Shown in pieces: positions 4,124-46,010 of a stretch of DNA of 64,000 nt. The stretch is from Cyanidioschyzon merolae. Taxonomy: Eukaryota. The notes beneath the pieces are model-generated. The model made no database searches. It had not been told where the DNA came from and worked only from the letters and a program-made list of their open reading frames with translations. How positions within the stretch are numbered: the stretch's first letter is position 1; each line of letters starts with the position of its first letter. The DNA lies in NCBI GenBank assembly GCA_000091205.1, contig AP006502.2; one strand, written 5' to 3'. Made by a program: the position numbers and the translations under genes.

Positions 4124-5467
4124 ATGCTGCTAACTCGTGCAACACCAGAGATAGCACTGGCGCCTACAGAAAAGGCATCAAGTCTGAGGCTTCCCCCTGA
4201 ACTCAGCGCTGGCTCTTTCGCGTCGCGTCTATGCTGGCTCGGTGCGAAGTGCTTCGTAGCGGCGTCTGGCTCCGAGACGTACGCCCTGCAAGTATCGAGT
4301 AAATTGCAGGGCGTTTCGCAAGTCGCCGACCGTGACTATGAGGCTTTCTCGGAGAGCGCTCAGCGAACCGAGGTTGTGCTCCTTCCAAATAGACAGACGA
4401 GCGCTGTGTGGAGCGTGCTGGCGCAGCCCCGTTTCCGAACGGAGGCCCAGTGCTTGGCTAGCTCACTCGTTGATGGTGATTTGGACGGTGACCGCCAGTG
4501 CTTAGTCGCCTGTGTGGATTCTCTTGGGGCGCTGGCCGTGAGCCGGTTGCACCTGACGGAGTGCTCTAGTGGGACGCAGATTCAGAACCGTTCCAGTTTC
4601 ACTGGGGCGACTGTGGAGCATCCTCGGGTACACCCCGGTCCTTCCTGTTGTGCGCTGGCACGGCCAGGACGCTCCAAGTCTGTTCGGAGCCCGTACATCG
4701 CGGTTGCTGGATACCTGGGCTGTACGGTCTCGGTCTACGAAGGAGAGCTACTTGTACGGCATATGCGCACACTAGAGCACCCAAGCAGCCTCACTTTTGG
4801 GAGCGGGTCGGGGGCATTTGGTGCCCAGTTCCATTCCACGCCTTGTGAACATGAAGAACTGCTTTACTTCACGGAGGGCCCGGCCATTTCGCTATGTGAT
4901 CTACGAGCACCGGGGATGTCATTCCGAAGGAAAATCATTGGCGGGCATGCGTCCATGTCGAGCGGTGCGACCGTATCCTGGTACAGTTGCGACCTAGTTG
5001 GCTACGAAATGGCACTCGTTGGACCGCAACGCTGCGTTCTGGTTGTAGATGTTCGGCGATGGGGTGTCCTTGGCCGCTGGTGGTCATGCCTCAAATACGA
5101 TGCGACGACTGTTATGTGGGCAAGTGCAACATCGCCCTCGCTTGATCGCAGACGTACTCAAGGCATGCTCCTCTATGTCAGTGGGCGTGATAATGAAATG
5201 GCCTGTGGAACGCTTTCCGCAACGGCACCTGAAACGCAGCCGCAGCAAGCAACGCATGAACAAGGGCGACGGCCAAACGCGTTGTCAAGCAGCAGGGAGC
5301 CTGTCTCTGCACCATGTGGATGGCAACAAAAAGGTGAGCGTTTGTTCGGTTTTCGAGCAGAAAACGGTTGGATCGGTGCCGCCCGATATGGCGAATGCGG
5401 CTGGGCTGGCCTCACCGAACGCGGAATACTCTACACGTTACGGACGTGGTCGGGCAAGGAACTCTGA
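4124..5467 (+). CDS. Hypothetical protein, 447 aa, no recognised domain.
   Basis: Long ORF with ATG confirmed at 4124. The only support is ORF length in the intergenic gap between uS2m and the polyQ ORF. Confidence 0.3.
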   Translation: MLLTRATPEIALAPTEKASSLRLPPELSAGSFASRLCWLGAKCFVAASGSETYALQVSSKLQGVSQVADRDYEAFSESAQRTEVVLLPNRQTSAVWSVLAQPRFRTEAQCLASSLVDGDLDGDRQCLVACVDSLGALAVSRLHLTECSSGTQIQNRSSFTGATVEHPRVHPGPSCCALARPGRSKSVRSPYIAVAGYLGCTVSVYEGELLVRHMRTLEHPSSLTFGSGSGAFGAQFHSTPCEHEELLYFTEGPAISLCDLRAPGMSFRRKIIGGHASMSSGATVSWYSCDLVGYEMALVGPQRCVLVVDVRRWGVLGRWWSCLKYDATTVMWASATSPSLDRRRTQGMLLYVSGRDNEMACGTLSATAPETQPQQATHEQGRRPNALSSSREPVSAPCGWQQKGERLFGFRAENGWIGAARYGECGWAGLTERGILYTLRTWSGKEL

Positions 5468-12340: not shown

Positions 12341-13555
12341 CTACTGGTCCCGCAGACGACGAACGTGGAACGGCCACTCACACCGCAGCGTGCCTAGCGT
12401 TGCGAGCGCCGCTTGTGAGACGCTGCGGAGCACACCGTCGCCCGAGAGGCGCTTCCACGCTGCTGGCGAGGCGTCTCTAACAGGGCCGCTCGTGACTTGT
12501 CTGGCCTCTCGTTGCGATTCGTACGCTGCCGCTCCGTCTAAGCAGCGTAGACGAGCGCCCAGCGCTAGGCGCAGCGGCGCACTCTGCATGAGCGTGCGCA
12601 CACCCTCCCGTACAAGGCGGTGCATCTGCAGGCGTGCGACGCGCAAACGCCTTTGAAGCAAACGGCCCTGAGGGGTGTTCGTGGTGAATAGCAGCGGAAC
12701 GTTCCCCAGATAGTCCAGCGGCGAGCGCTCTGGTTCATAGCGAGTGCTATCATCTTCGGCGTCGCCCAGCTCGGGTGCGCTCCAGCAGCGCGCCAGCGCC
12801 GGGCCCGCGCACCGTTCTAGAGTAGCATCTTCTTCGGTATCCTCGTGCAGTGTGCCGGGACCTGATTCAAGCTTAACGACTGCGTATTGTTCCGTCGGGC
12901 TTTCGACTGGTGGCGGGCCCGCTGGAGCGCCCACCAGCGCAACGTTGTCCGTCTGCGGTCCCGCGCCGTCTGCCGCTTCGCGCTCGCTGGATGCTGCCGA
13001 AAGCTCCCGCAGGCGCCGCCACTTGTTCCGCAGGCGCTCCGTTCTCGGTATGGCGGAGCAGCGCGGGTCCACCACCGGTACCCCGTCTGCTGTCTGACGG
13101 GCGCAAACGAGTCGCCGTTGGTCGTAGTCTACCCACTCGTACACAATTCGCCCGAGCAGCTGCGTACGGCTAACGCCCTGTCCTCCACGAGCTGCGTTCC
13201 GCGAAGGACTGGGTGCCGCTGCCGCTTCCATTGCCGTGCTCACTGCGGCGGGTGCCGCCGTCCCGTCACGTCGCTTGCGCGGTACTTGCTCGAACGCCCT
13301 CGAAAACTTTGCAAGCACGTGCGCTCGCGCAAGCTCTACCCATAGTGGAGGGAAGAGCACTCGCCGCGCAACCTGCACCAGCGACCACTGCGGCTGTGTA
13401 GCGGTCGCCTGGAGGCTGCGGCTCGCGCCACGAACCCGCCTGTGCAGTCGTCGTCGTTGCCAGAGGCGAGCGAGAAACAACCCGACGCTGCTGCTGCCCT
13501 CCTTGGGCCCTATAAACACTGTGCTCTGTGCTGTTAAACAACTGTTCCGATTCAT
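12341..13555 (-). CDS. Hypothetical low-complexity Arg/Ala-rich ORF in a very GC-rich zone.
   Basis: ATG at 13553-13555. The ORF is overlapped by many alternative-frame ORFs on both strands. This is typical of GC-rich low-complexity DNA, so a real gene is uncertain. Confidence 0.2.
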   Translation of the reverse strand: MNRNSCLTAQSTVFIGPKEGSSSVGLFLARLWQRRRLHRRVRGASRSLQATATQPQWSLVQVARRVLFPPLWVELARAHVLAKFSRAFEQVPRKRRDGTAAPAAVSTAMEAAAAPSPSRNAARGGQGVSRTQLLGRIVYEWVDYDQRRLVCARQTADGVPVVDPRCSAIPRTERLRNKWRRLRELSAASSEREAADGAGPQTDNVALVGAPAGPPPVESPTEQYAVVKLESGPGTLHEDTEEDATLERCAGPALARCWSAPELGDAEDDSTRYEPERSPLDYLGNVPLLFTTNTPQGRLLQRRLRVARLQMHRLVREGVRTLMQSAPLRLALGARLRCLDGAAAYESQREARQVTSGPVRDASPAAWKRLSGDGVLRSVSQAALATLGTLRCEWPFHVRRLRDQ

Positions 13556-21626: not shown

Positions 21627-24104
21627 ATGGACCGGAACGTTCAGGCTAGTTTCCAGTTGGATGATCTTTGGCTCACACTCCAGCCTGGAGGTGCCTCGGA
21701 ATCAGTCTTTCGACGTGTTGAGTTCGTTTTTCAGGCCGTTCTAGAGGGGCGGGAGAGTTTTCGCGGTGTTGGACTCCGCCTCCCTGAGCTTATAGACTGC
21801 ATATTCGGATTCCAGGACAGATCGCGGGGGTCTTGGAGTGAAACTGTGTCTGGTTGGCTCCCAGATTGTGAACGTCGCGCAGCACGTCCCGGGGACGCAG
21901 ACGCGCTTGTTTCGCTATTAGAGCCTCGCGGACCGCTCTTCCAGACACTGCTTTGTCACGACGAACGATACACCTATGATTTTCCGCTACAAAACTTGCC
22001 TCAGCCGCTTTTAGACGAAATCGCTGCGGTGCTCAGTGGCGAAGACGCGAATGTACGCGCTGCTGTGGCAGCGTCGCCACACCCAGATCGGAAACCCGAG
22101 AACCTCCCTACTGGAGAATACTCCCCGTTAGCCTACTATTTGTCAGCACACGTGACCGACCCCACTCACGATACCGTTCGAATTGGCGCTGCCCGATACT
22201 ACCTGCTCTGCTTCCTGGCCTATCCGGTGTATGCTCGCCATCCAACGGTCAATGAGCGCTTCACCTCGGCCTGGGACACCTCCGCTCGTCAGCACATATA
22301 CGAGCGCGTGCTGTTGGCCTTCCTCCAGGAATTCGCGTCACTGCAGCAGCTGCTTCATCAGCATGTATCATTTGAGCGTTCTGCCGCAACTACACTGTCT
22401 GTCGCTGACCTTTTCGTCCACGCATGGGTTGCGTTCTGGTTTCACTGGAATGGAGAGCTTTGGCCCTGGAATGGATGGCACGACGCAGTAGCCAATGACT
22501 GGGGCCAAATGCAGCTCGCTCGCTATCGCGAGCGACACAGCGTTCCATCGCTGCTGACCATGAAATGTCAACGCTTGGCGATGATGCACGTCATGGGGGT
22601 TTTCGAGACCCACGCTGATCAGGTCGAGCGATGGAGTGGATGCCAGCACATCATCAATCAAGATCGCGTGCCCGTGAGACATTCCGAACCATTTGCTGGA
22701 GAGTCTTCGGCATCGCGCGATACGGGCGTCCCGCGGAAAATCCCCTCCGCGGGAACACCATCGCTGCAAGTCTACTTGAATATTCCTCTCGGTTTGCAGC
22801 ATGTTGATGCGAGTTGGCGAGCGTGGCATCCAAACCAACTCGGCTCATCGGGGGCGGCGCAACGGACGAATCCACTCCTCCGTTTCCTTCTGATCGTGTT
22901 TTGCCGCTACTTTTGTCGCACAATACCTCGTATGCAGCAAATGTGCATTGATCTGGATGCGTCGACGAATGTGGCCTTTCTAAAGACCATTTCTGCGTGG
23001 CTTTTCCCCTGGGATCAGGCCACGGAGCTTTCAGCGCTTTTGGAAAAGGCACGGGATCAACGGGGACGTCGCGTTGCCCTGCTCCATGGTCTCGCACTAT
23101 TGCATACGCCTTTTGTGGAAGAACCGCGGAAATCGTCCCAATACAAAACGTCTTGCTGGCGACGTGTACTTGCCCTGCATTTTCCGCTCTACGTGCGGTT
23201 GCTTGTGGACATGCTCAACATTCTCGTCCGCTCGCGCTGTCTGCTGCAGAGCCCTGGTGCCCTTGAATTCTACCTGGATTTGCATCGCAGTGCGCAGTGT
23301 CGTGATTGGCTGGCTGATCTTCAGAAGATTGCGCATTCAACGCGAGCAGTCGAGTCTCGACAACAACCATGCATCGAAGCATGGTCGGAATTCCAACACT
23401 CCAGGTGTTCACCGAATCTGTCGGAACTGGCAGGTCTCGATTGTGATGCGTTTCGACAAACGCTGCGTGAGCTTCGGCTGCAGCTAGAGCGACGCTTGCA
23501 TTCCAGCTGGAACACCTCGGCGGTGTTCTTGAGTCGGTTAGCACGAGACCGAGCGGCGCATCTCGTTGAGCCGTGGATTCAACTCGTTGAACCTGCGGAA
23601 TTCCCTGGATCACCGAAGGCACGCGATCCATTGAGCAACGCATCCGTTCAGGCACTCGATGATACCGATTCTCTGGGTGTGATTCATCGGCGACTTCCAG
23701 CGTTATCGCCAGACCGTAGCGTAACGTCGCCAGGAGGTGCTCCACAACACTCAGCAGCGGCGGCGGGCGCGAGGGAGCCGACCACGCCCCCTTCCATGTC
23801 AACTTCGGCGTCAAGTCGGACAGACTCGGAAATGTTACCTCTTGGAGCTCAGATTGCGCTGGGTCGGAAAAAATGCTCTAACCTGGATATCGTGCCTCGT
23901 GGAGATGCATGGAGATGGCCAAAACAGAGCAATGAGTTCGGTCCAGCGCTTGTTCTGGCCCGGCGTCTCGCTCTAAAACTGGAGCAACTTACTGGAGTGT
24001 CGTGGAATCTGCGCTTTTTGGCATCGTATGTGGTGATCGGCTATCTTGCCGTGGGTTTGACACTCTCGCTACTCTGGTTGATGGTCGTTTCCGGAATTTT
24101 CTAG
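21627..24104 (+). CDS. SMPD4: Sphingomyelin phosphodiesterase 4 (neutral sphingomyelinase-3, SMPD4) homolog, tail-anchored.
   Basis: ATG at 21627. N-terminal blocks ELIDCIFGF...SGWL / LLEPRGPLFQTLL / YTYDFPLQNLPQPL parallel SMPD4 IFPWLVESIFG...VGWNL / FLDPGGPMMKLVY / YKFDFPVSYLPGPV. C-terminal NLRFLASYVVIGYLAVGLTLSLLWL parallels the SMPD4 [23 protein letters not shown] membrane anchor. Confidence 0.6.
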   Translation: MDRNVQASFQLDDLWLTLQPGGASESVFRRVEFVFQAVLEGRESFRGVGLRLPELIDCIFGFQDRSRGSWSETVSGWLPDCERRAARPGDADALVSLLEPRGPLFQTLLCHDERYTYDFPLQNLPQPLLDEIAAVLSGEDANVRAAVAASPHPDRKPENLPTGEYSPLAYYLSAHVTDPTHDTVRIGAARYYLLCFLAYPVYARHPTVNERFTSAWDTSARQHIYERVLLAFLQEFASLQQLLHQHVSFERSAATTLSVADLFVHAWVAFWFHWNGELWPWNGWHDAVANDWGQMQLARYRERHSVPSLLTMKCQRLAMMHVMGVFETHADQVERWSGCQHIINQDRVPVRHSEPFAGESSASRDTGVPRKIPSAGTPSLQVYLNIPLGLQHVDASWRAWHPNQLGSSGAAQRTNPLLRFLLIVFCRYFCRTIPRMQQMCIDLDASTNVAFLKTISAWLFPWDQATELSALLEKARDQRGRRVALLHGLALLHTPFVEEPRKSSQYKTSCWRRVLALHFPLYVRLLVDMLNILVRSRCLLQSPGALEFYLDLHRSAQCRDWLADLQKIAHSTRAVESRQQPCIEAWSEFQHSRCSPNLSELAGLDCDAFRQTLRELRLQLERRLHSSWNTSAVFLSRLARDRAAHLVEPWIQLVEPAEFPGSPKARDPLSNASVQALDDTDSLGVIHRRLPALSPDRSVTSPGGAPQHSAAAAGAREPTTPPSMSTSASSRTDSEMLPLGAQIALGRKKCSNLDIVPRGDAWRWPKQSNEFGPALVLARRLALKLEQLTGVSWNLRFLASYVVIGYLAVGLTLSLLWLMVVSGIF

Positions 24105-28329: not shown

Positions 28330-28698
28330 TTAACTTGGAGTAACCGCCGAATTCTCTTGCATATAGCGTTCGATTTCCATATCGAGTTCCGCTGTTGATT
28401 TGGTGGTTTTCGCTTCTTTCTGTTGACGTTTTCGACCTTTGCGCTCGGAGCGCGGAGTCCCATCCTTGCCGCGCCGTGGTTTCTTTTCTTTCTGAACTTT
28501 TCGTGGCTTTTCGATGACATGGCTTTGGACACCAGCCTTCGACTTGGTCGGACGACGCTTTTTCTTTGCCTTTCTCTTGGAGTCAGCGCTCTGAGAAAAG
28601 CGCTCGTTCAAGCTTGGCGTTACTTTTGCGGGCTGCCTCGGGGATACCGCCCCACTCTTGTTACCCTCCAAAGCGAATTCTGTTCCACGTAAAGGCAT
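28330..28698 (-). CDS. Small Lys/Arg-rich ORF with an Aly/REF-type UAP56-binding-like C-terminal motif (ELDMEIERYM). Tentative.
   Basis: This is the 3' third of track ORF 28330-29124. The 5' two-thirds overlaps MAK16 in antisense and is discounted. An internal ATG (MPLRG...) gives 122 aa, with a KRKAKKKRRPTKSK basic run and a terminal LDxxIxxYM motif. Confidence 0.2.
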   Translation of the reverse strand: MPLRGTEFALEGNKSGAVSPRQPAKVTPSLNERFSQSADSKRKAKKKRRPTKSKAGVQSHVIEKPRKVQKEKKPRRGKDGTPRSERKGRKRQQKEAKTTKSTAELDMEIERYMQENSAVTPS

Positions 28699-28899
28699 GA
28701 CACTCGACCTGAATCCAGCTTCTGCGTTTCCTCCACAGTCGCTCGACTGCTGCCTGTTGAACGCGTCCACAGAGACCTGTCGTTGCAAGTCGCGCGCAGC
28801 ACTCGTAGGCAGTGCAAGCATCTTGCGCGTATCGACGACGACGTGCTTGCGAGCGCTTCCTCGTGTCCAGGTGCGGTCGTTGTGTTGAACGTTGCCGTC

Positions 28900-29946
28900 A
28901 TGCAGAACGATGACGTTATCTGGTCGCTCATTGGTAATAAGAGGTTTTGTCGCTACAAGGTGAAAACGAGGAGACAACAAGAGAACTTCTGCCTGAACGA
29001 GTATAACGTCACCGGCATGTGCAGCCGGCAGTCCTGCCCTTTGGCGAACTCGCGGTACGCCACTATTCGGGAAGCCGCCGACGGCAGACTCTATCTTTTC
29101 ATCAAGACGATCGAGCGGGCGCACATGCCTCGTAAGCTTTGGCAGAAGATTCGTCTATCTGGATCGTATACGAAAGCACTTTCCCAGATAGACGAGCACC
29201 TAGCGATGTGGCCCAAGTTTCTTGTTCATCGTGCGAAACAGCGACTCACGAAGCTCACACAGTATCTCATCCGAAAACAGCGTCTAGAATCCGTAGAGAA
29301 AACACAACTGTTGCCCGTGAAAAAGAAGGTTGAGCGGAGAGAGCGGAAACAAGAGCAGCGCGCTCTTGACGCCGCCAAGCTGAGCCTCACGATAGAGAAC
29401 GAGCTGTTGGCGCGGCTCAAACAGGGCAAGTACGGAGAGATCTTTAACTTTGCACAAAAGGAATTTGAGCACGTCATGGAACAAGAGGCGGAGCCGCTGG
29501 AGCTTGAGCGAGATCTCGACCGTAGCTACTTTGAGCCGCTGTACGAGTCCAGCGATGAGGAGGCGGTGTTCGGTGCAGGCGACGACAGCGACGTGCCGGG
29601 CACCTACGCAAACGCAGCCCCGCCAGACGATGAAGAAGCTTCATGGTCTGATGGTTCCGCAATGGATGACGTTCCCTCTGATTCAGCTGACGAAGACTGG
29701 AGCCCAGCTCCCGATCTGGAAGACCTGCCTCATCCAGCAGATCGAAACGCCTCGACCTTCTACTTCGATGAGGCCTCTGACTCCACAGAAGCTGATGAGC
29801 GATTACCGACAAGACCAACGCCGGTTCAGCGTGCTCGTGTCGCTCAGGAAGCGAGCCGACGAAGAAAGACGAAAGCATCATCGTCTAGGCACCGGAAGCA
29901 ATTCGAGACCGAATTCGAATTTGAGCGAGAACTCGAGCCTCTCTGA
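28900..29946 (+). CDS. MAK16: MAK16 ribosome-biogenesis protein (Mak16/RPL28e-like N-domain plus acidic C-terminal tail).
   Basis: The track ORF starts on TTG at 28783. The first ATG is at 28900, giving MQNDDVIWSLIGNKRFCRYKVKTRRQQENFCLNEYNVTGMCSRQSCPLANSRYATI..., the canonical Mak16 N-terminus with its Cys cluster. The D/E/S-rich tail is typical. Confidence 0.75.
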   Translation: MQNDDVIWSLIGNKRFCRYKVKTRRQQENFCLNEYNVTGMCSRQSCPLANSRYATIREAADGRLYLFIKTIERAHMPRKLWQKIRLSGSYTKALSQIDEHLAMWPKFLVHRAKQRLTKLTQYLIRKQRLESVEKTQLLPVKKKVERRERKQEQRALDAAKLSLTIENELLARLKQGKYGEIFNFAQKEFEHVMEQEAEPLELERDLDRSYFEPLYESSDEEAVFGAGDDSDVPGTYANAAPPDDEEASWSDGSAMDDVPSDSADEDWSPAPDLEDLPHPADRNASTFYFDEASDSTEADERLPTRPTPVQRARVAQEASRRRKTKASSSRHRKQFETEFEFERELEPL

Positions 29947-30866
29947 AGAACGCACGCTAAAACATGCAGTGCTATCAAAAGTATACAGCGCTCGTCTATT
30001 CCAAAGCTATGGAAAAGCAAGCGTTGGTTTTGAATCGCGTGCTGCACAGATCCACCGCAGTCAGAAGGTTCCCGCTAAAAGGAAGCAAAATAACGCGATC
30101 GACAAGGCGATGGACTCAAATCTATCCACGACAACATATGCTTTGGGGGATACTTTGGGAAACTGCCCGACTTGCACCACAGCAACAATGCGTCTGCAAG
30201 GTTCTGCGTCACTCGAACTGCAGACGTCCATTGGTGCTTTGAACGAAGGCGCCGCATCGACGCTAACGCGCCCTCATACAATCCGCAAGAACACGTGCCG
30301 AACGTCTTGGAAAGCACGTGAGACACCAGAACGCGACCATGGTGGCGCTGCACAGGTCGCTATCCGGCGCTAGACGTGAAACCACACCGCATGCAGCGCG
30401 TGGACGAGGCGGGGCCGCACAACGCTCGTCCCTAAAACCGGCTACAGACTTTCCACGTATGACTTGCAGCACATCAAGACTCAAGGAATCAAGTTTTTCA
30501 CATTTTAGAGGGCGCTGAAAACACAGCGGATGTCCCTATGAACTTGCACGAGCTGGCGTGCAGGCACGCAACGAACGTCGTGCATGCACCAAAGCACCCT
30601 CTACTCCAAAAGCGCTCACCGTCTACACGCTCTCATAACTGACCCGACACGCTTCTCCTTCCCGGTGTGGTCAACAGCATCACTCGAGGATGAATGGAAA
30701 GAAAGCGTTCGATCCCAGGAAAAAGGCGCCGTTTTGCCACGAAGCTGCCGCAGCGACCCAGCATGCCATCATTTGACCGATTTTTCCCTCAACGACGGCG
30801 TTGTGGCGCTATTCGCGCGCGAAAACTTTCTGACCCATAGGCTTTGTCATGCGTGCCTCGGTCTGA

Positions 30867-32132
30867 ATGAGTACTTTGGAAAAGTTTCTCGCTGAGCTTG
30901 ATAAAATTTCAGGAACTGCACAGAATTCAATCGTTCCAGATTTTCTCGCTGGTCCAGGACAAGTCGCGCTTGAGAGCGCGCCGGCGCCGCCAGACTCGTC
31001 GTCGTTTGGAGCTGCGCCAGCGCCTGCACCCGAGGCGCCTCTTGGCAGGAACGCGACCTCCGTACGAACAGGTGCTCGAGAACTGGAGCGGTCACTGCTT
31101 CAGTCCGCAGAAAAAACGGAAACTGGTGTGTCTCTCTCGTCGTCCAGCGCTTGCGGTGAGCCGAGTTCGCGCGACGAGGTAGCGCAGGCGTTGCGCGCCC
31201 TTGTGGAACGCCTTCGCCTGAGCGGTACGCTTTCAGAACCGCCGGACAACGGCATCCTGAAGACCCGCACAGCCTCAATAGCACCTACGCAACGAGAGCA
31301 GGTATCCCCTGGAGACAGCGCAGGTGCTGCATCAAGCGCACCGGCGTATATCGCTAGCAACGAGGCTGGGACTTGTCCAAACGATGCGACAACGACGGAG
31401 CAGGACGCGCTGGCTCTTCAGCTTGCAGCTGTACAGCACCAGGCAACGCTTCTGCACAGGGAGTGCGCTTGGGTTCAGCGTTTATGTGACGACCTGAGTC
31501 GGGAGCTATCGGAAGAGCGGCAGCGCCGACTTGTTGCCGAAGAGCGAGCACGTCAGCTTGCCGAACAGCTTGAGGAGCTCTACGACGAAAGCGTTCGACA
31601 AGCCCGTTCACTACGGCTGCAATTCGAGGACGCCCTTGAACAAGAGCGGGAAACCATCCGCACACTCGAGGCTGAACTCGCGGATCACCGGCGACTCGCG
31701 GAGAACGTTGGCGACACCGGGGAGCGCCTCGACCATACGCGGACACAGCCCAGTTCCCGGACCAGCACAGGTGTTGATGCAAGCTCCGTGGCGGCACCAG
31801 AGAAGACAACGGTGATCGTCGCAGAAAAACTCTGCCAAACAGAGCCTGTATGGAAGATGGATGCTGCATGTATGACGGATGAAGCGCAGGCCGAGCTCGC
31901 CGGTAAAGCGATGGCCGTCGACCGACCGCCGTTGAAAGAAGCTTACTATCGGACACAATTGTCGGAACGCTCGGAAGCTGAAAATCCCGCGCAAGAAGAC
32001 GGTCAATCGCTTCGTCAAGCCAACCTCTACGTCGAGTTGTACGAGGCGCTGAAGCAACGCGATTTGTGGATGCGCGAGGCGCAGGCACTGGCTCGCAGCT
32101 TGCGGTTCCTCCGTCAGGCGTTCCACTATTGA
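30867..32132 (+). CDS. Hypothetical coiled-coil protein (421 aa).
   Basis: ATG at 30867. Long heptad-like E/R/L/Q stretch (LHRECAWVQRLCDDLSRELSEERQRRLVAEERARQLAEQLEELYDE...). Confidence 0.35.
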   Translation: MSTLEKFLAELDKISGTAQNSIVPDFLAGPGQVALESAPAPPDSSSFGAAPAPAPEAPLGRNATSVRTGARELERSLLQSAEKTETGVSLSSSSACGEPSSRDEVAQALRALVERLRLSGTLSEPPDNGILKTRTASIAPTQREQVSPGDSAGAASSAPAYIASNEAGTCPNDATTTEQDALALQLAAVQHQATLLHRECAWVQRLCDDLSRELSEERQRRLVAEERARQLAEQLEELYDESVRQARSLRLQFEDALEQERETIRTLEAELADHRRLAENVGDTGERLDHTRTQPSSRTSTGVDASSVAAPEKTTVIVAEKLCQTEPVWKMDAACMTDEAQAELAGKAMAVDRPPLKEAYYRTQLSERSEAENPAQEDGQSLRQANLYVELYEALKQRDLWMREAQALARSLRFLRQAFHY

Positions 32133-36973: not shown

Positions 36974-38137
36974 TCATGCGCGTTTCGCTAGCAGAGGCCA
37001 TCTCCGAACGTTGTTCGACAGACGCTCATATCTCGATCCATAAAGGGCCGTCACACGCTTCGACAGGTAAACGCACACAACTGCATGCCGCTCGCTCTCG
37101 TTGCTCGCTGCATCGGACGTTATCTCAGCGTACCGTGCAACATCTCGAGCGTCCGGCTCTGTTTCACGCTCTTCTCCTCTACCGGCATCAGCGCGCAACC
37201 GTGCTCTTGATTTCTGCATATTGTCCTGCATCCATCGATAAGCATCGGAAAGAATCGATTCCTTCGCTCGTTGCACGCTCTCGTAGATGCAGCAGGAATG
37301 CAGCCCGAGCGCGTTCCAGCGCCTCGAGCGGCAGTGCGCTGCCACCGAACAGCACGACGCATCATGCACTATCGGGTTGATGTTCATGTTCATGTTCATG
37401 TTCATGTTCATGTTCATGTTCAAGTCCATGTCCTTGATCAAGTCCTTGAGCGTGTCCACGTCCATGTCCATTTCATGGAAACCGTTGGCCAGTCTGCGCT
37501 TCTTGCCTCCGTGCAGCCGGAGCATCGGCGAGTCCGGTGCGGCTCCATCTAGTGCCTCCATAGATTGTCTGCATGAGCCATTTGGACGCTCATGTGCTCC
37601 GTGAATGCGGCGTTCAGAGAATACCTCAGACCGCTGGATTCGGCGCTCAGAGCGTCAACATGGGTCACGACGCTGTCCTTGCACTCGCTGGTAGACCGCT
37701 GGGCGCCCGCCATGTCGGGCTCCCGTTCATGCCCTTCCCTGCACAAGCTGCGCAGTTGCATTTGCTCGCCCTGAGGATCTCCGGATACATCCCCTCGATG
37801 TAGAGATACTGCATCTGAGATGACGGTTTCCAGCTGCGGATCCGGGTCCGCCGCAATGTTCGTCTCGTCGTCTACCCTGACAGGTTGAAAAAGCTGCTCG
37901 TCGGCTGACGCTGGCCTCGGTTTCATGGAGTCTGTGTTTGTGTGTGTGTGTGTGCGTATGTGTGCAGACGGACAGTCCGTCGGTGCATCGTCCCTGTGCA
38001 TTTCGTCTTGTTTCCTTCGTGTGACAGAGAAACCTTGAACGAGCCTCTGCTCTGCTCTGCTCTGCTCTGCTTGAGGCTGCTCGAGCGATACGTCGCTGCT
38101 CGAAGAGATACCAGACCCTCTTCGCTATCCGCTTCAC
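36974..38137 (-). pseudogene. Hypothetical gene inside duplication copy 1, frameshifted relative to copy 2 by a (TG)n length difference.
   Basis: ORFs 36974-37561, 37549-38001 and 37727-38137 (-) together cover the same protein as copy 2 ORFs 49604-50167 and 50155-50745. The HTHTHTH tract sits at the frame break. Confidence 0.25.
37376..37422. repeat. (ATGTTC)n hexanucleotide microsatellite, about 7 units. Its partner at about 50006-50029 has 4 units.
   Basis: Seen directly. It encodes a (MN)n/(HV)n low-complexity tract in overlapping ORFs. Confidence 0.9.
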
Positions 38138-39339: not shown

Positions 39340-42300
39340 TTATAGGCTCTCGATAGATGCCAAGTACTGGTGTGGGGAGAGCACGCTTGTACCGCCAATT
39401 ACCACGTCAATCTGCAGATGTGTAGCGAGTCCTCGTATCTGCTCCACTTCAAGAGCGGTGACTCCACCAAGTACCACGAACAGGAAGCGATCGTTTCGGT
39501 AACGTTCAGCGGCTCGCTGGAGACGATCCACCAACGCTGCATGCACTCCAGCGTCCTCGGGCAATGTTTCAGTCGCATCTTGCTGCTGCTGCTGCAGTGC
39601 CTCTGTGCCGTCTAAGGCTTCACAAACAGTCGCTTGTGATCGCACGTTCCTTTGTGCACTAGATGGGGGACTTGACGGCGACAGCGCCTCTGCCAGCATG
39701 CCTGCTTCTTCAGCGATACGCAACCTGCTGCGACGTGCACTGCGTTTGACGTCGACATCTGGCGTCGCCCGGTCGACTTGCTGAACGACTCGTGGAGTCG
39801 TTTGCGTGTCGGCTGCCGTTCGCTGTTCGTCGCTTTGATTACATGTTGTCCCTGGACTGTGCATCATATGCGCGTCCTCAGAATGAATACCTTTGCGGGT
39901 GTTCTGGCTGGGCATGGCGTCCAGTTGCATACCGACAGCAGCATCGTGCGTCATATCATGTCCCTGGGTTGCAGGCGTCGTCGTCGTCGTCATCGTCGTC
40001 GTCGCAGCGAGCGGAGCTGTCACGTGAGGCTCGGGCGCTGGCGACGGCGCTCGCGGCTCCACGAGCAACGTAGACAAGAAGAGTTCCGCAGCCGGTGACC
40101 CCAGCGGCTCCTTGTGTTCATGGTCGGACGCAACAGCGCTGTCGTCGTGCCCTTCAGCGACTTCATGTCGTTGTTGAAGATCGAATGCGCCCATATACTG
40201 GAGCAAAATTTGGCTCGCCATCGTCTCCGGTAACAGTAGCGATCCAAGTGACTCGTGTACCAGCACTCGAGCTCGCCGTCTCCGTCGCACGCGGGCGGAG
40301 CGCGTTGCCCACTTGGCGGCACGAAGGCGTTGAAGAAACGCATTCGCCGTTCGTATCAGCGAGTCTTGCGTCTGCAGGTCCAGTCCCGGAATTTTCTGGA
40401 CCAGTTCCCTGACAAGATGTGGGTCCCGGCATCCAAGGAACACCAGCAGTAAGCGCAGCTTGTCGGAGAGCGCATACGTGTCCGCTTCGAGAACCTTTTC
40501 CACGGTACGGCGCATCGTAGCGGAACTGATTCGTGACCCTTGATCCTGCTTGATACCCATGACGATGCACCTTTCCAACGCCGATAAATAGAGTAGATTT
40601 CGTTGTTGCTGTTCTTGGAGACAACGCTCCAGGCTCTTTGCATGCCAGCGCAAAGCGGAAAGCAACTCCAACTGCGCCGGGTCCGCTGCTTGGAGGCTCT
40701 CAAGCGCTCGCTTCAGCGAGGCAAGATCCAGGTCGATACATTCCGCATGAGTCACGCGGTTATCTGAGTCAGGCTCGCTGGATGCGAGGAGCGGCTGCGC
40801 GAGCGCCTGCAGTTTCGCCACAGCGTCCGATAGCGTGTACTGTCGCAGCGCTCGCCAGACCGCATCGTGCTCGGAAGGCCACTGCGGTCGGGCGTTTCCC
40901 GCTGCATCATTCAGTTCCAGAAGCATGCCGCGGTAGGTGTTCACGTGTAGCAGAGGCGTAACGGGGTCCACGGCACGATCCATGAGCAGGAGGTGCAGGG
41001 CACCGCGCCCTGCCACCAAACCTGGACAGAACAGCGGCAAGAGATGCACCGCTGCATACGTCTGAGCCGCCCTGGCAATGCAGGTCGCTTGTTCACTAGC
41101 CGCAGGAGAGGTATGAATCTGAATCCAGGGGGCTTCATTCGCAAAGGTGCCTGCACCCATGCCGTGCAGTAGGGTGCCGATCTGGTGACCGAGTTCCTCC
41201 ATGAGCTGGAACCGCATGGCGCAGGTCTCGGGAGCATCTGCACCGTACAAGAGACCAAATACGTCTTCCCGATTCTCGATACTTACCACTTGTTCCTCGA
41301 TCGGGAAAAAGTCCACATGAATGGGTAGTAAGACGGTGCTTCCGTCAACGTCCGCCCAGGAAATGGCGTGGCGGCGGGGCAGCGGTGCGCTCGGCGAACG
41401 CGTCAACAAGAGCCGCACCGGCACTGGAGCGCTTCGCTTAGCCTCATAGCGCGCCACACTGGTCATCCAGTCGCCCGTTGGAGCCAGAATATAGATTGTT
41501 GGGAGCTCTAGTTCCCGATTTCCGCAACGAGGAAGCTGCTCCAGGAGACATATCCGTGCTGAAGGGAAGCATTCGGCCAAGTTTGGTCCCAGGGCATATT
41601 TCAGGAGCACTGCAGTGCGGGCGTCGAGAACAAGAAGCCAATCTCTTTGCCCAAAGTGCTCCACTTGATCGTGGACAAGGGCGACCAGGAGACGCTGCAC
41701 TCGCTGGACGATGCTGAAAGGTTTTTGAGAATCGTCTATCGACCCGAAGCTCGGCAAACTGAGCATCAAAGGCGACAGGCTGTCCATGGACAGGATCCCC
41801 CCCGGAATACCCCAGCGCGGCTCATTCGCTGCCTCAGACCCGAGACTCGTCGGGCTGAGCGTGCCCTTCTCCGCTGCATCAGCTGCTTGAAATCCGTAGG
41901 CAGCCCCGAAATGCGCTTTTTTCTCGAAGCCAGCTCGTCGCTGCCGTCGTCTGCGCAGAAGGCACCATACCAACAATACACCGAATACCAGAGCGAGTAC
42001 GATCAGCACCGCCACAATGGCAGCTACGGCACCTGTACTGATGCCTTGAGCGGGACCCGCGGTCACAGCGTTGGCCTCGTTTGGATCCTGGACATCAACC
42101 GCGAGCACGTTGTCCGCGCCACAAGATACGGGTCCGAGCGCCGTCAAGTTACTCAAATGGCCCCTGCATACAAAGCGATTCAACGCTGTTTGCCAAGCAT
42201 CTAAAGCACTTGCGCTGATGACGCCCGCATAAGTGGCGATCACTGATCCAGCACGCAGATCGACCAGCACCAGCGGCGGGTCCGACAGAAGCGCTTCGCG

Positions 42301-43329
42301 TATATCCGGATTTCGCAATAGCGCTTCCGTGATATTTTGACTCACGCCAGTGGTAAATTTGCTCAGCATTAATCCCGTAAAATTCAACGGGAAGACTACC
42401 CGACGCGATGATTCTCCCCGGAAGGCAGGGAGTGGCGCGATAGTTGCCTGAGCGCTCCGCACGCCGCTGGCGATCGGGAACGGTAGCGGTGTCGGCACCG
42501 AGTCGCTCCCAGCGCTTTTAGCCGTCACCAGCACATTCGCGTATCGAATACCGGGGCAACGGGCATTGTAGAGGGCCCAGGTACCGCTGGAGAACGTGTT
42601 GTCACTCGTCTCAACAGAGAGCTCTCCGTTAATGAACACTTGAAGGCGGGCGTGATCGCAGCGCACGTGCAGCTCGACAAAGTCTCCGAGCGGGTACGGC
42701 TGCGCGTGCGCCGCTGTCGCAATCGTGTTCCAGCTCCCGTTCGCGACAACCTGCAGCTGCTGAATAGCGCCGCTGGCACGAACTCCCGGCTCTTCCGTGT
42801 TACTCCACACGAAGCGGTAATAGTTATTCGAGTCCTGAATGCGAAACATGACTCCGGCCAGTCCGTTAACTGCGGCATTGATCGCAACATAGATATCGTA
42901 GTTGGTGAGGGTCTCAGAGCCGGCCCCGATGTACTGGAGAAACGTGCCTGCATAGGGGTCGGCGGCGCTATTTGGCGAGAAAATGTTCTTGGTCTGCTCG
43001 AGCACCGCACCGCTCTCGTAACGCATCCCGTTCGCATCCACGTCGGTTTCAATCCAGAAGGAGGGCGCCCCAATCGAGCCCTGGTCCACTGGCTTCCACA
43101 CGCTCGTGTCTATTGGACATATTGGCGCTGTGCAGGAAGAGAAGTCCGTTCCGAAAATGACACCAGACTCGCTCACTCGAAACTTGCTCCAGTCGGGTGA
43201 AGCGCCCCTGACTGATTCGGAAACGCCCAAAAGCGCCAGCACCAGAACAAGCGCGCAGAGCCAGCGGTACCGCCGGGGCCACGGACGCCAGCGCGCACCC
43301 GAGAGCAGCGCGGCAACCGATGCGAACAT
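39340..43329 (-). CDS. Single ORF encoding a signal peptide, a ConA/LamG-like ectodomain, a TM helix and a complete Sec1/Munc18 (SM) domain. Apparent fusion protein.
   Basis: The track ORF starts on TTG at 43371. The first ATG is at 43329 (MFASVAALLSG...). The hydrophobic signal-like segment LCALVLVLALLGVSESVRG and the TM helix AVAAIVAVLIVLALVFGVLLVWCLL followed by RRRRQRR lie at about 41955-42035. Downstream come SM motifs: WLLVLDARTAVLL...LPTIYILAPT; LLMDRAVDPVTPLLHVNTYRGMLLEL; C-terminal FLFVVLGGVTALEVEQIRGLA...IDVVIGGTSVLSPHQYL. No in-frame stop lies between the modules. Confidence 0.5.
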   Translation of the reverse strand: MFASVAALLSGARWRPWPRRYRWLCALVLVLALLGVSESVRGASPDWSKFRVSESGVIFGTDFSSCTAPICPIDTSVWKPVDQGSIGAPSFWIETDVDANGMRYESGAVLEQTKNIFSPNSAADPYAGTFLQYIGAGSETLTNYDIYVAINAAVNGLAGVMFRIQDSNNYYRFVWSNTEEPGVRASGAIQQLQVVANGSWNTIATAAHAQPYPLGDFVELHVRCDHARLQVFINGELSVETSDNTFSSGTWALYNARCPGIRYANVLVTAKSAGSDSVPTPLPFPIASGVRSAQATIAPLPAFRGESSRRVVFPLNFTGLMLSKFTTGVSQNITEALLRNPDIREALLSDPPLVLVDLRAGSVIATYAGVISASALDAWQTALNRFVCRGHLSNLTALGPVSCGADNVLAVDVQDPNEANAVTAGPAQGISTGAVAAIVAVLIVLALVFGVLLVWCLLRRRRQRRAGFEKKAHFGAAYGFQAADAAEKGTLSPTSLGSEAANEPRWGIPGGILSMDSLSPLMLSLPSFGSIDDSQKPFSIVQRVQRLLVALVHDQVEHFGQRDWLLVLDARTAVLLKYALGPNLAECFPSARICLLEQLPRCGNRELELPTIYILAPTGDWMTSVARYEAKRSAPVPVRLLLTRSPSAPLPRRHAISWADVDGSTVLLPIHVDFFPIEEQVVSIENREDVFGLLYGADAPETCAMRFQLMEELGHQIGTLLHGMGAGTFANEAPWIQIHTSPAASEQATCIARAAQTYAAVHLLPLFCPGLVAGRGALHLLLMDRAVDPVTPLLHVNTYRGMLLELNDAAGNARPQWPSEHDAVWRALRQYTLSDAVAKLQALAQPLLASSEPDSDNRVTHAECIDLDLASLKRALESLQAADPAQLELLSALRWHAKSLERCLQEQQQRNLLYLSALERCIVMGIKQDQGSRISSATMRRTVEKVLEADTYALSDKLRLLLVFLGCRDPHLVRELVQKIPGLDLQTQDSLIRTANAFLQRLRAAKWATRSARVRRRRRARVLVHESLGSLLLPETMASQILLQYMGAFDLQQRHEVAEGHDDSAVASDHEHKEPLGSPAAELFLSTLLVEPRAPSPAPEPHVTAPLAATTTMTTTTTPATQGHDMTHDAAVGMQLDAMPSQNTRKGIHSEDAHMMHSPGTTCNQSDEQRTAADTQTTPRVVQQVDRATPDVDVKRSARRSRLRIAEEAGMLAEALSPSSPPSSAQRNVRSQATVCEALDGTEALQQQQQDATETLPEDAGVHAALVDRLQRAAERYRNDRFLFVVLGGVTALEVEQIRGLATHLQIDVVIGGTSVLSPHQYLASIESL

Positions 43330-45660: not shown

Positions 45661-45787
45661 AACGCACCTGGAGATGGAACGCAATTCAGATGAAAGTCCA
45701 GAACGCACGCTGCGGCACCGGATCGCCGCAAGATCGCAGGCGCGCAGCGTGCACAGACGGCGCCTTTGCCGCTGAGGGTAGCGTCCG

Positions 45788-46010
45788 TCACGAGAAGCGG
45801 CCTGTGCGCGTCTGTCACGAGAAGCGGCCTGTGCGCGTCTGTCACGAGAAGCGGCCTGTGCGCGTCTGTCACGAGAAGCGGCCTGTGCGCGTCTGTCACG
45901 AGAAGCGGCCTGTGCGCGTCTGTCACGAGAAGCGGCCTGTGCGCGTCTGTCACGAGAAGCGGCCTGTGCGCGTCTGTCACGAGAAGCGGCCTGTGCGCGT
46001 CTGTCACAGC
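45788..46010. repeat. 27-bp minisatellite, about 8.5 perfect units (GTCACGAGAAGCGGCCTGTGCGCGTCT).
   Basis: Seen directly. It translates as (HEKRPVRVC)n or (VTRSGLCAS)n in overlapping ORFs and lies immediately beside remnant c4. Confidence 0.9.

Follow-up and report, generated by a model that had tools for sequence, protein, structure and literature searches.

The window analysed here, a stretch of 64,000 nucleotides of nuclear DNA from the red alga Cyanidioschyzon merolae 10D (contig AP006502.2), carries on its minus strand the gene CMT347C, annotated as a "hypothetical protein". We consider it likely that this gene encodes one membrane-anchored Sec1/Munc18 (SM) protein, in which a signal peptide, a lectin-like and SEA-like ectodomain, a transmembrane (TM) helix and an SM domain are joined in one chain, and for which we infer a role in SYP1-dependent wall secretion. 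SM proteins are universal and essential cofactors of the SNAREs; those studied are soluble and recruited by syntaxin, and to our knowledge the same holds for every other SM protein, including those in the papers that we retrieved. CMT347C departs from this pattern by a signal-like N-terminus and a TM helix, both kept in nine family members. A preliminary description of the same DNA had left the choice between a novel membrane-anchored SM protein and two adjacent genes that look like one because the stop between them was lost or misassembled. The uninterrupted open reading frame (ORF) and a collinear architecture across genera support the former, and the latter was rejected on the strength of independent assemblies, orthologues at saturated divergence and collinear paralogues.

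Domain architecture and predicted topology

The ORF starts with an ATG at 43329 and has no internal stop; the other two frames of 39340-43329 contain 34 and 38 stops. The preliminary description had given this 1329-codon frame from its first ATG and named no strand. The translation is a 100% match to XP_005539339.1/BAM83303.1, the CMT347C protein of C. merolae 10D. The features, all on the minus strand, follow from the N-terminus to the C-terminus after the coding sequence itself.

39340..43329, minus strand: complete coding sequence of CMT347C, 1329 codons plus the stop at 39340-39342, identical to XP_005539339.1
43204..43329, minus strand: predicted signal peptide, aa 1-~42, with an Arg-rich n-region and the h-region LCALVLVLALLGV; cleavage probably near aa 37-43
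42478..43170, minus strand: predicted ConA-like / DUF1080 (3-keto-disaccharide-hydrolase-like, CBM66-like) beta-sandwich, aa ~54-284, from Pfam, AlphaFold and Foldseek
42088..42408, minus strand: SEA-like domain, aa ~308-414, modelled as beta-alpha-beta-beta-alpha-beta, with invariant C388 and C403
42229..42255, minus strand: invariant motif R-x-G-S-V-x-A-x-[YF] (RAGSVIATY, aa 359-367) in the beta2-beta3 turn
41956..42033, minus strand: TM helix, aa ~433-458, Kyte-Doolittle (KD) hydropathy 3.31
41935..41955, minus strand: polybasic stop-transfer or positive-inside cluster RRRRQRR, aa 459-465, recognised by charge asymmetry
41725..41934, minus strand: cytosolic linker, aa 466-535, with the motif GF.AAD.AEKG..SP.S and the non-conserved Met515
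40165..41724, minus strand: main part of the SM domain, aa 536-1055 (SM domains 1, 2a, 3a and 3b), Pfam PF00995
39535..40164, minus strand: low-complexity insert, aa ~1056-1265 (~210 aa), in an SM-domain loop, poorly conserved
39343..39534, minus strand: C-terminal piece of the SM domain, aa 1266-1329 (FLFVVLGGVTALEVEQIRGL...VIGGTSVLSPHQYL), 53-75% identity

The SM domain was matched by Pfam PF00995 at 113.6 bits (cut-off 30.7; E 2e-32), and both of its ends could be aligned: in an exhaustive search, residue ~12 of ordinary SM proteins of 600-650 aa falls on SM profile position ~12, and the last 50 aa of CMT347C can be aligned with the C-terminal ends of Munc18-2 and Vps45. The core motif is retained as well, LLLMDRAVDPVTPLLH being aligned to LLIMDRAADPVSPLLH of Munc18-2. 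As judged from these alignments, the SM module is complete end to end with all sub-domains kept, in agreement with the complete SM domain of the preliminary description, which had overlooked the insert. Comparison at the DNA level covered three species, represented by the window and by the orthologues on the contigs L001 and L003. Across these species the insert shows 11-25% identity, many indels and a ratio of nonsynonymous to synonymous differences (pN/pS) of 0.66-0.78, and is open in all, and the SM part has a pN/pS of 0.28-0.40, that is, it is under purifying selection as strong as that on the ectodomain.

A profile search of the PDB with the SM domain returned Munc18-2 (E 3.5e-14), Munc18-1 and squid Sec1 (~5e-8) and Vps33 (2e-4); over the profile and single-sequence searches together, the top ranks were held by Munc18-2, Munc18-1, squid Sec1 and Munc18c (E 3.5e-14 to 2e-4). 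Sly1 gave no match in the PDB searches with this domain, and for Vps45 the C-terminal ~75 aa alone were matched (E 0.0034, single-sequence search), with no match to the N-terminal part of the SM domain of CMT347C. The nearest non-fused relatives in the sequence database are Munc18-type proteins, which score 270-319 bits to Munc18-1 versus at most 97 to Vps45 or Sly1. By these best matches, the SM domain would be a long-branch member of the exocytic Sec1/Munc18 clade. Koumandou et al. 2007 (PMC1810245) described the SM sequences of C. merolae as divergent and assigned one of them, given without name or accession, to Sec1. With the exocytic SM proteins (Munc18-1/2/3, yeast Sec1p and Arabidopsis KEULE/SEC11) CMT347C shares the full PF00995 domain, its best PDB and database matches fall in their group, and its presumed partner would likewise be a plasma-membrane syntaxin of the SYP1 type. 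Whereas these proteins are soluble, CMT347C has a signal peptide, a ~390-aa ectodomain, a TM helix and the ~210-aa insert, and it is very divergent.

Three chytrid proteins (P0043, P0050 and P0053) are labelled 'vacuolar sorting protein VPS33/slp1' at NCBI, and these labels look wrong; P0043 is of the Munc18/Sec1 type, with 319 bits to Munc18-1 versus 30 to Vps33. P0053 has a long N-terminal extension and was considered as a possible anchored relative. It was rejected, being an unrelated partial gene model that lacks the pattern of lectin, SEA and TM segments.

The signal-like N-terminus and the stop-transfer TM helix followed by RRRRQRR, both claimed in the preliminary description, are present. 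The hydrophobic core at aa 24-42 reaches a KD value of 1.86 in a 19-residue window, and small residues occupy the -3 and -1 positions around aa 37-42. That the Arg-rich N-terminus might be an organelle transit peptide was considered and rejected, given the strong h-region that follows and the short classical signal peptides of the CMT347C orthologues. The polybasic cluster stands directly after the TM helix, which has an equivalent in every family member (KD 2.4-3.3), and the 15-aa flanks of the helix contain 0-1 Lys and Arg residues before it and 5-7 after it in 9/9 members. N-glycosylation sequons (NxS/T) number 79 in 3807 aa on the N-terminal side of the helix (2.1 per 100) versus 25 in 7253 aa on the C-terminal side (0.34 per 100), a six-fold difference in density for which Fisher's test gives p 4e-18, an overstated value and not a true probability because the nine members are kin. 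The N-terminal part of the family proteins also contains conserved cysteine pairs. Taken together, the charge asymmetry, the sequon excess and the cysteine pairs place the lectin/SEA part on the luminal or extracellular side and the SM domain in the cytosol, the sole compartment where an SM domain could meet SNAREs. CMT347C is predicted from its sequence to be a single-pass type I membrane protein, N-out/C-in. The supplement of a 2026 study in Plant Cell (PMC13353863) contains predictions for its relatives: the SignalP column reads SP(Sec/SPI) for the Cyanidium orthologue and for g1423 and g718 of Galdieria partita, and Phobius predicts one TM segment for the Cyanidium orthologue and g1423 and three for g718; for the Cyanidiococcus orthologue, the predictions are no signal peptide and two TM segments.

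For the first ectodomain module, which the preliminary description had called a ConA/LamG-like beta-sandwich of ~230 aa, our models support a ConA-like fold. AlphaFold is confident over aa ~54-284 (predicted local distance difference test, pLDDT, 75-96), and a Foldseek search of the PDB with this model gave CBM66 as the best match (E 6.5e-9), with further matches to the thrombospondin C-terminal domain, galectins and VIP36. In hmmscan, Pfam PF06439 matched aa 140-253 at 25.4 bits, marginally under the cut-off of 26.8; it is nonetheless among the precomputed Pfam matches for the CMT347C protein. The module is a putative lectin or enzyme. The nearest relatives by sequence are DUF1080 proteins of bacteria such as Phycisphaerales (30-36% identity, E 8e-34), and non-cyanidiophyte eukaryotes were absent from its sequence matches. 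The ectodomain query returned bacterial DUF1080 proteins only, and not the protein's own cluster, which we treated as an effect of candidate selection. These matches suggest that the head was gained by horizontal transfer from bacteria, a plausible origin; horizontal acquisition is known for other cyanidiophycean genes. The likeness to bacterial DUF1080/PF06439 and CBM66 proteins lies in this sequence identity and in the structural match, and the difference is that in CMT347C the domain would form the extracellular head of a membrane protein in a eukaryote. A second likeness is to the L-type lectin cargo receptors VIP36 and ERGIC-53, which likewise have a luminal domain of ConA-like fold, a single TM helix and a part in the cytosol linked to trafficking, but their coat-binding tails are of ~10 aa, as against a cytosolic part of 870 aa with an SM domain in CMT347C.

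Between the lectin-like domain and the TM helix lies the SEA-like domain, which the preliminary description had overlooked. In an earlier AlphaFold run with an alignment of three eukaryotic rows, this middle domain had a pLDDT below 50; an alignment of seven members raised the confidence to a pLDDT of 82 and gave the order beta-alpha-beta-beta-alpha-beta, so that an alpha/beta sandwich of the SEA fold is predicted beside the TM helix. The R, G, S, V and A of its motif are invariant in 7/7 aligned members, and G365-S366 fall between the model strands 58-63 and 67-76. This turn corresponds in position to the G/SVVV site at which classical SEA domains cleave themselves, and cleavage here is putative. 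No Pfam match at E<=10 was obtained for three orthologous segments, nor did a sequence profile search of the PDB return any; since there is no sequence match to the Pfam SEA family (PF01390), we call the domain SEA-like and not a family member. Type I proteins with SEA modules (MUC1, MUC16, TMPRSS6/matriptase-2, dystroglycan and the sarcoglycans) similarly have a beta-alpha-beta-beta-alpha-beta domain that adjoins the TM helix, and the G-S-V at the modelled beta2-beta3 turn stands where they self-cleave; Galdieria g718 even has an S/T/P-rich, mucin-like stalk ahead of its SEA-like domain. They differ in that the cytosolic part here is an SM domain, not a short tail or a protease, and no sequence similarity to the Pfam SEA family is detectable.

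Conservation of the fused gene

Whether CMT347C could be two adjacent genes, one for a lectin and one for a soluble SM protein, falsely joined by a lost stop or a misassembly, was assessed in independent assemblies and in distant relatives. The 90%-identity cluster of the protein comprises 31 sequences, and the 15 of these that are listed all have 1328-1329 aa; most of the 15 come from JGI metagenome contigs, which were assembled independently of the 10D reference. The linker would be the place of a missing boundary, and it is the least conserved coding part of the gene besides the insert (27-42% identity, pN/pS 0.7-0.8), which would suit two genes. Synonymous sites are saturated among the three species (proportion of synonymous differences, pS, ~0.65-0.8), yet the frame is open throughout the ~70 aa of the linker, which contains no stops, and its indels are in-frame indels of four codons (12 nt); its motif GF.AAD.AEKG..SP.S is conserved. 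The internal Met of MDSLSP, which the preliminary description had put at about 41787, is Met515 and maps exactly to 41787. As the candidate start of a separate SM gene, this residue is not conserved, being W in the other two species.

Relatives outside these species share the arrangement. With the full protein as query, a word-indexed search for homologues gave three close orthologue clusters only, and the more distant members needed an exhaustive profile search. In that search, made by hidden Markov model with the SM profile against 1.8 billion representative proteins, we found four further fused proteins of 1084-1228 aa, with the SM domain beginning at residue ~425-560: Cyanidium caldarium P0033/P0182, Galdieria partita g718 (P0137), P0034 and P0035. 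Wherever the N-terminus is complete, the order is the same, with signal peptide, ConA-like domain, G-S-V, TM helix, basic cluster and SM domain. P0035 belongs with Cyanidiococcus P0187 ("syntaxin binding protein") and P0188 to a second paralogue group, whose members have a signal peptide, a heavily glycosylatable ConA-like domain, the G-S-V motif, a TM helix and an SM domain. This group shares a metagenome with the CMT347C-type orthologue P0003, which indicates a lineage with at least two anchored SM genes. CMT347C aligns with Galdieria g718 in one collinear high-scoring segment pair of 974 columns that spans ectodomain, TM helix and SM domain (E 4e-33), and it aligns with P0188 in both halves; it follows from this collinearity that the fusion would have arisen once, before the lineages and the paralogues split. 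By these sequence comparisons the fusion is ancient and under purifying selection; it occurs in four of the four cyanidiophycean genera that were sampled, and at least two groups of paralogues have it. The locus of the second group (L005/L006:8001-11687) is separate from that of the CMT347C type and adjoins genes for GOST_TM and Membralin proteins.

A lone annotation is in favour of a boundary. In an older assembly of Cyanidiococcus yangmingshanensis, the gene is split into two models of 477 aa and 601 aa (KAF6005292.1/KAF6005293.1; P0019/P0020). We examined this split as a true gene boundary and rejected it, because the first model breaks within the TM helix, with a frameshifted tail, and the second does not begin until residue 718, already within the SM domain, with a loss of ~257 aa of that domain; this is a frameshift artefact typical of an older assembly, and a newer assembly has an intact protein of 1318 aa (KAK4529375.1). 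Gene order, which the preliminary description had proposed to compare, is kept around the orthologue on the cyanidiophyte contig L001. With constant length in the close cluster, an open linker at saturated divergence and the same architecture in Cyanidium, Galdieria and the second paralogue group, we regard a false join of two genes as extremely improbable.

On novelty, the preliminary description was right, with one caveat. An SM protein that is by nature integral to the membrane, is conserved and carries a lectin and SEA-like ectodomain appears to be undescribed so far: in the searchable literature we found no precedent for naturally membrane-anchored SM proteins, its main texts do not name CMT347C, and the text of PMC13353863 makes no mention of an anchor, lectin or SEA architecture. 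What is already known is the gene with its SM domain, which is in the databases, and the family's membership among the SM genes, as PMC13353863 counts it with its signal peptide and TM predictions.

Diploid expression and possible roles

The same study (PMC13353863) reports 10 SM genes in each of Cyanidioschyzon merolae, Cyanidiococcus yangmingshanensis and Cyanidium caldarium and eight in Galdieria, several of them expressed mainly in the diploid, cell-walled phase, and one paralogue of the syntaxin SYP1 for each ploidy phase. According to its supplement, the Cyanidiococcus yangmingshanensis gene whose top hit is CMT347C reaches 118-128 transcripts per million (TPM) in 2n cells versus ~2 in n cells, and the Cyanidium caldarium orthologue 110-125 versus <0.14 TPM; in G. 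partita, g1423 is at ~100 versus ~12 TPM and g718 at 51-58 versus 2-3 TPM. Transcripts of the orthologues are thus nearly confined to the diploid, cell-walled phase, and in Cyanidiococcus the protein was likewise detected in diploids only. The authors of PMC13353863 propose that diploid-high SM proteins may cooperate with SYP1 while the nascent wall is built. Strain 10D is haploid and has no wall, which could help explain why the label "hypothetical protein" has persisted.

The sequence analysis predicts the following arrangement. The signal peptide sends the N-terminal ~430 aa, with the ConA-like and SEA-like domains, to the lumen or the cell exterior, one helix spans the membrane, and the polybasic cluster and the flexible linker of ~70 aa hold the SM domain at the cytosolic face. 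What follows is our hypothesis. At this face, the anchored SM domain could chaperone or template the assembly of the plasma-membrane Qa-SNARE SYP1, of which a diploid-specific paralogue exists, and this assembly step might serve the secretion of wall or matrix material. The covalent anchor would stand in for recruitment by syntaxin, confining SM activity to the membrane to which the ectodomain is sorted or in which it is kept. This ectodomain might bind glycans of the wall or of cargo, and the SEA-like module may be a self-cleaved, force-sensitive joint. Promotion of SYP1-dependent secretion for wall building is, in our assessment, the most likely role of CMT347C.

Several points weigh against this proposal. 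The expression and protein data come from orthologues in other species, not from C. merolae itself, and the proteome entry '2n only' for the Cyanidiococcus yangmingshanensis orthologue (supplement of PMC13353863) shows that the protein occurs in diploids, not that it is full length. The partnership with SYP1 and the wall-building role are correlations. The placing in the Sec1/Munc18 subfamily comes from best matches and not from a phylogeny, and the SM domain is very divergent, with 50-55 bits to Munc18-2 and only 15 proteins at E<=1e-10 for its profile in the 1.8-billion-protein library; with such divergence, SNARE binding is assumed. Finally, the linker of every orthologue contains at least one Met, which leaves room for a soluble isoform from an internal start.

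This last point leads to the possibility that CMT347C is one gene whose working SM protein is soluble, made from an internal start (Met515 or Met522) or by proteolysis in the linker, with the membrane form as a precursor or a minor product. The Met residues, the fast evolution of the linker and the solubility of all SM proteins studied are compatible with it. Yet about 1.2 Met would be expected by chance per 70 aa, their position is not conserved, as the W at the Met515 site in the two other species illustrates, and the conserved juxtamembrane motif, the polybasic cluster and the collinearity over four genera argue that the linkage itself is selected; moreover, both halves have the same extreme diploid-specific expression. 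We therefore hold a soluble working form to be quite unlikely.

The divergence of the SM domain raises another alternative, in which CMT347C is a true membrane protein but its SM-like domain has lost SNARE-chaperone activity and serves a wall or matrix receptor as a cytosolic scaffold or signalling module. The domain is extremely divergent from all others and contains a large disordered insert, and 10 SM genes against four canonical families leave room for neofunctionalisation (PMC13353863; PMC1810245). Against it, all SM sub-domains are kept, including the core motif, purifying selection on the SM part matches that on the ectodomain, and expression coincides with the diploid-specific SYP1 paralogue, so that loss of SNARE function is, in our view, unlikely.

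A bolder version of the membrane-anchored SM protein is a receptor-type SM protein, a speculative idea for which we see a small chance: glycan binding by the lectin head, or a pull of the wall on it, would act via the SEA-like joint or break it, and so switch the SNARE templating of the SM domain, triggering exocytosis locally from outside without kinases or second messengers. If true, both the class of wall-integrity sensor and the way in which an SM protein is regulated would be new. By analogy, the known wall-integrity sensors (yeast Wsc1/Mid2 and the plant FERONIA-type malectin-like receptor kinases) also link a module that binds wall or glycans, through a single TM helix, to an effector in the cytosol and are expressed with the wall, but the effector of CMT347C would be a SNARE chaperone, not a kinase or a tail that recruits a guanine-nucleotide exchange factor, and there is no homology.

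An anchored SM protein with an extracellular module in four genera would be a natural experiment on SM function as local membrane concentration. It asks whether fusion competence can be bound to one membrane or cargo, and whether the extracellular matrix signals directly to the fusion machinery. It also yields a hypothesis about the function of a "hypothetical protein" and about how these algae came to have 10 SM genes, an expansion not explained so far. The genomes of C. merolae and its relatives are very small, their genes can be modified by homologous recombination and their haploid/diploid cycle can now be controlled; therefore the anchor, the ectodomain and the pairing with SYP1 are open to direct testing.

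Neighbouring sequences in the window

CMT347C is flanked by housekeeping genes, with DNA polymerase delta subunit 4, eIF-6 and an SNF2 ATPase on one side and a HEAT-repeat protein and a WBS-type methyltransferase on the opposite side. Between the start of CMT347C and the gene for DNA polymerase delta subunit 4 there is an ORF-poor gap of ~3 kb, which holds a tandem repeat at 45781-46007 (27 bp in 8.4 copies, 99% matches, unit GCGTCTGTCACGAGAAGCGGCCTGTGC). Translated from the minus strand, the repeat gives (RDRRAQAAS)n within a 215-codon ORF without a Pfam match. It could belong to the promoter region of the diploid-specific CMT347C or to a small repeat-containing gene. Downstream of CMT347C, a gap of 3.5 kb contains short tandem repeats at 37376-37475 (GTTCAT x9) and a CA-rich tract at ~37.9-38.0 kb that appears as THTHTH in ORF translations.

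Scans of the window for tRNA genes and Rfam families gave no matches. Four further ORFs, at 21627-24104 (+), 30867-32132 (+), 12341-13555 (-) and 4124-5467 (+), encode 825, 421, 404 and 447 aa, have no Pfam domain above threshold at E<=0.001 and correspond to uncharacterised C. merolae genes. At 28330-30373, three long ORFs overlap across strands and frames. The one at 28783-29946 (+) is the sole domain-bearing ORF of the three, with Ribosomal_L28e and Mak16 domains, and marks the Mak16 gene; those at 29450-30373 (+) and 28330-29124 (-) are probably shadow ORFs of a GC-rich region.

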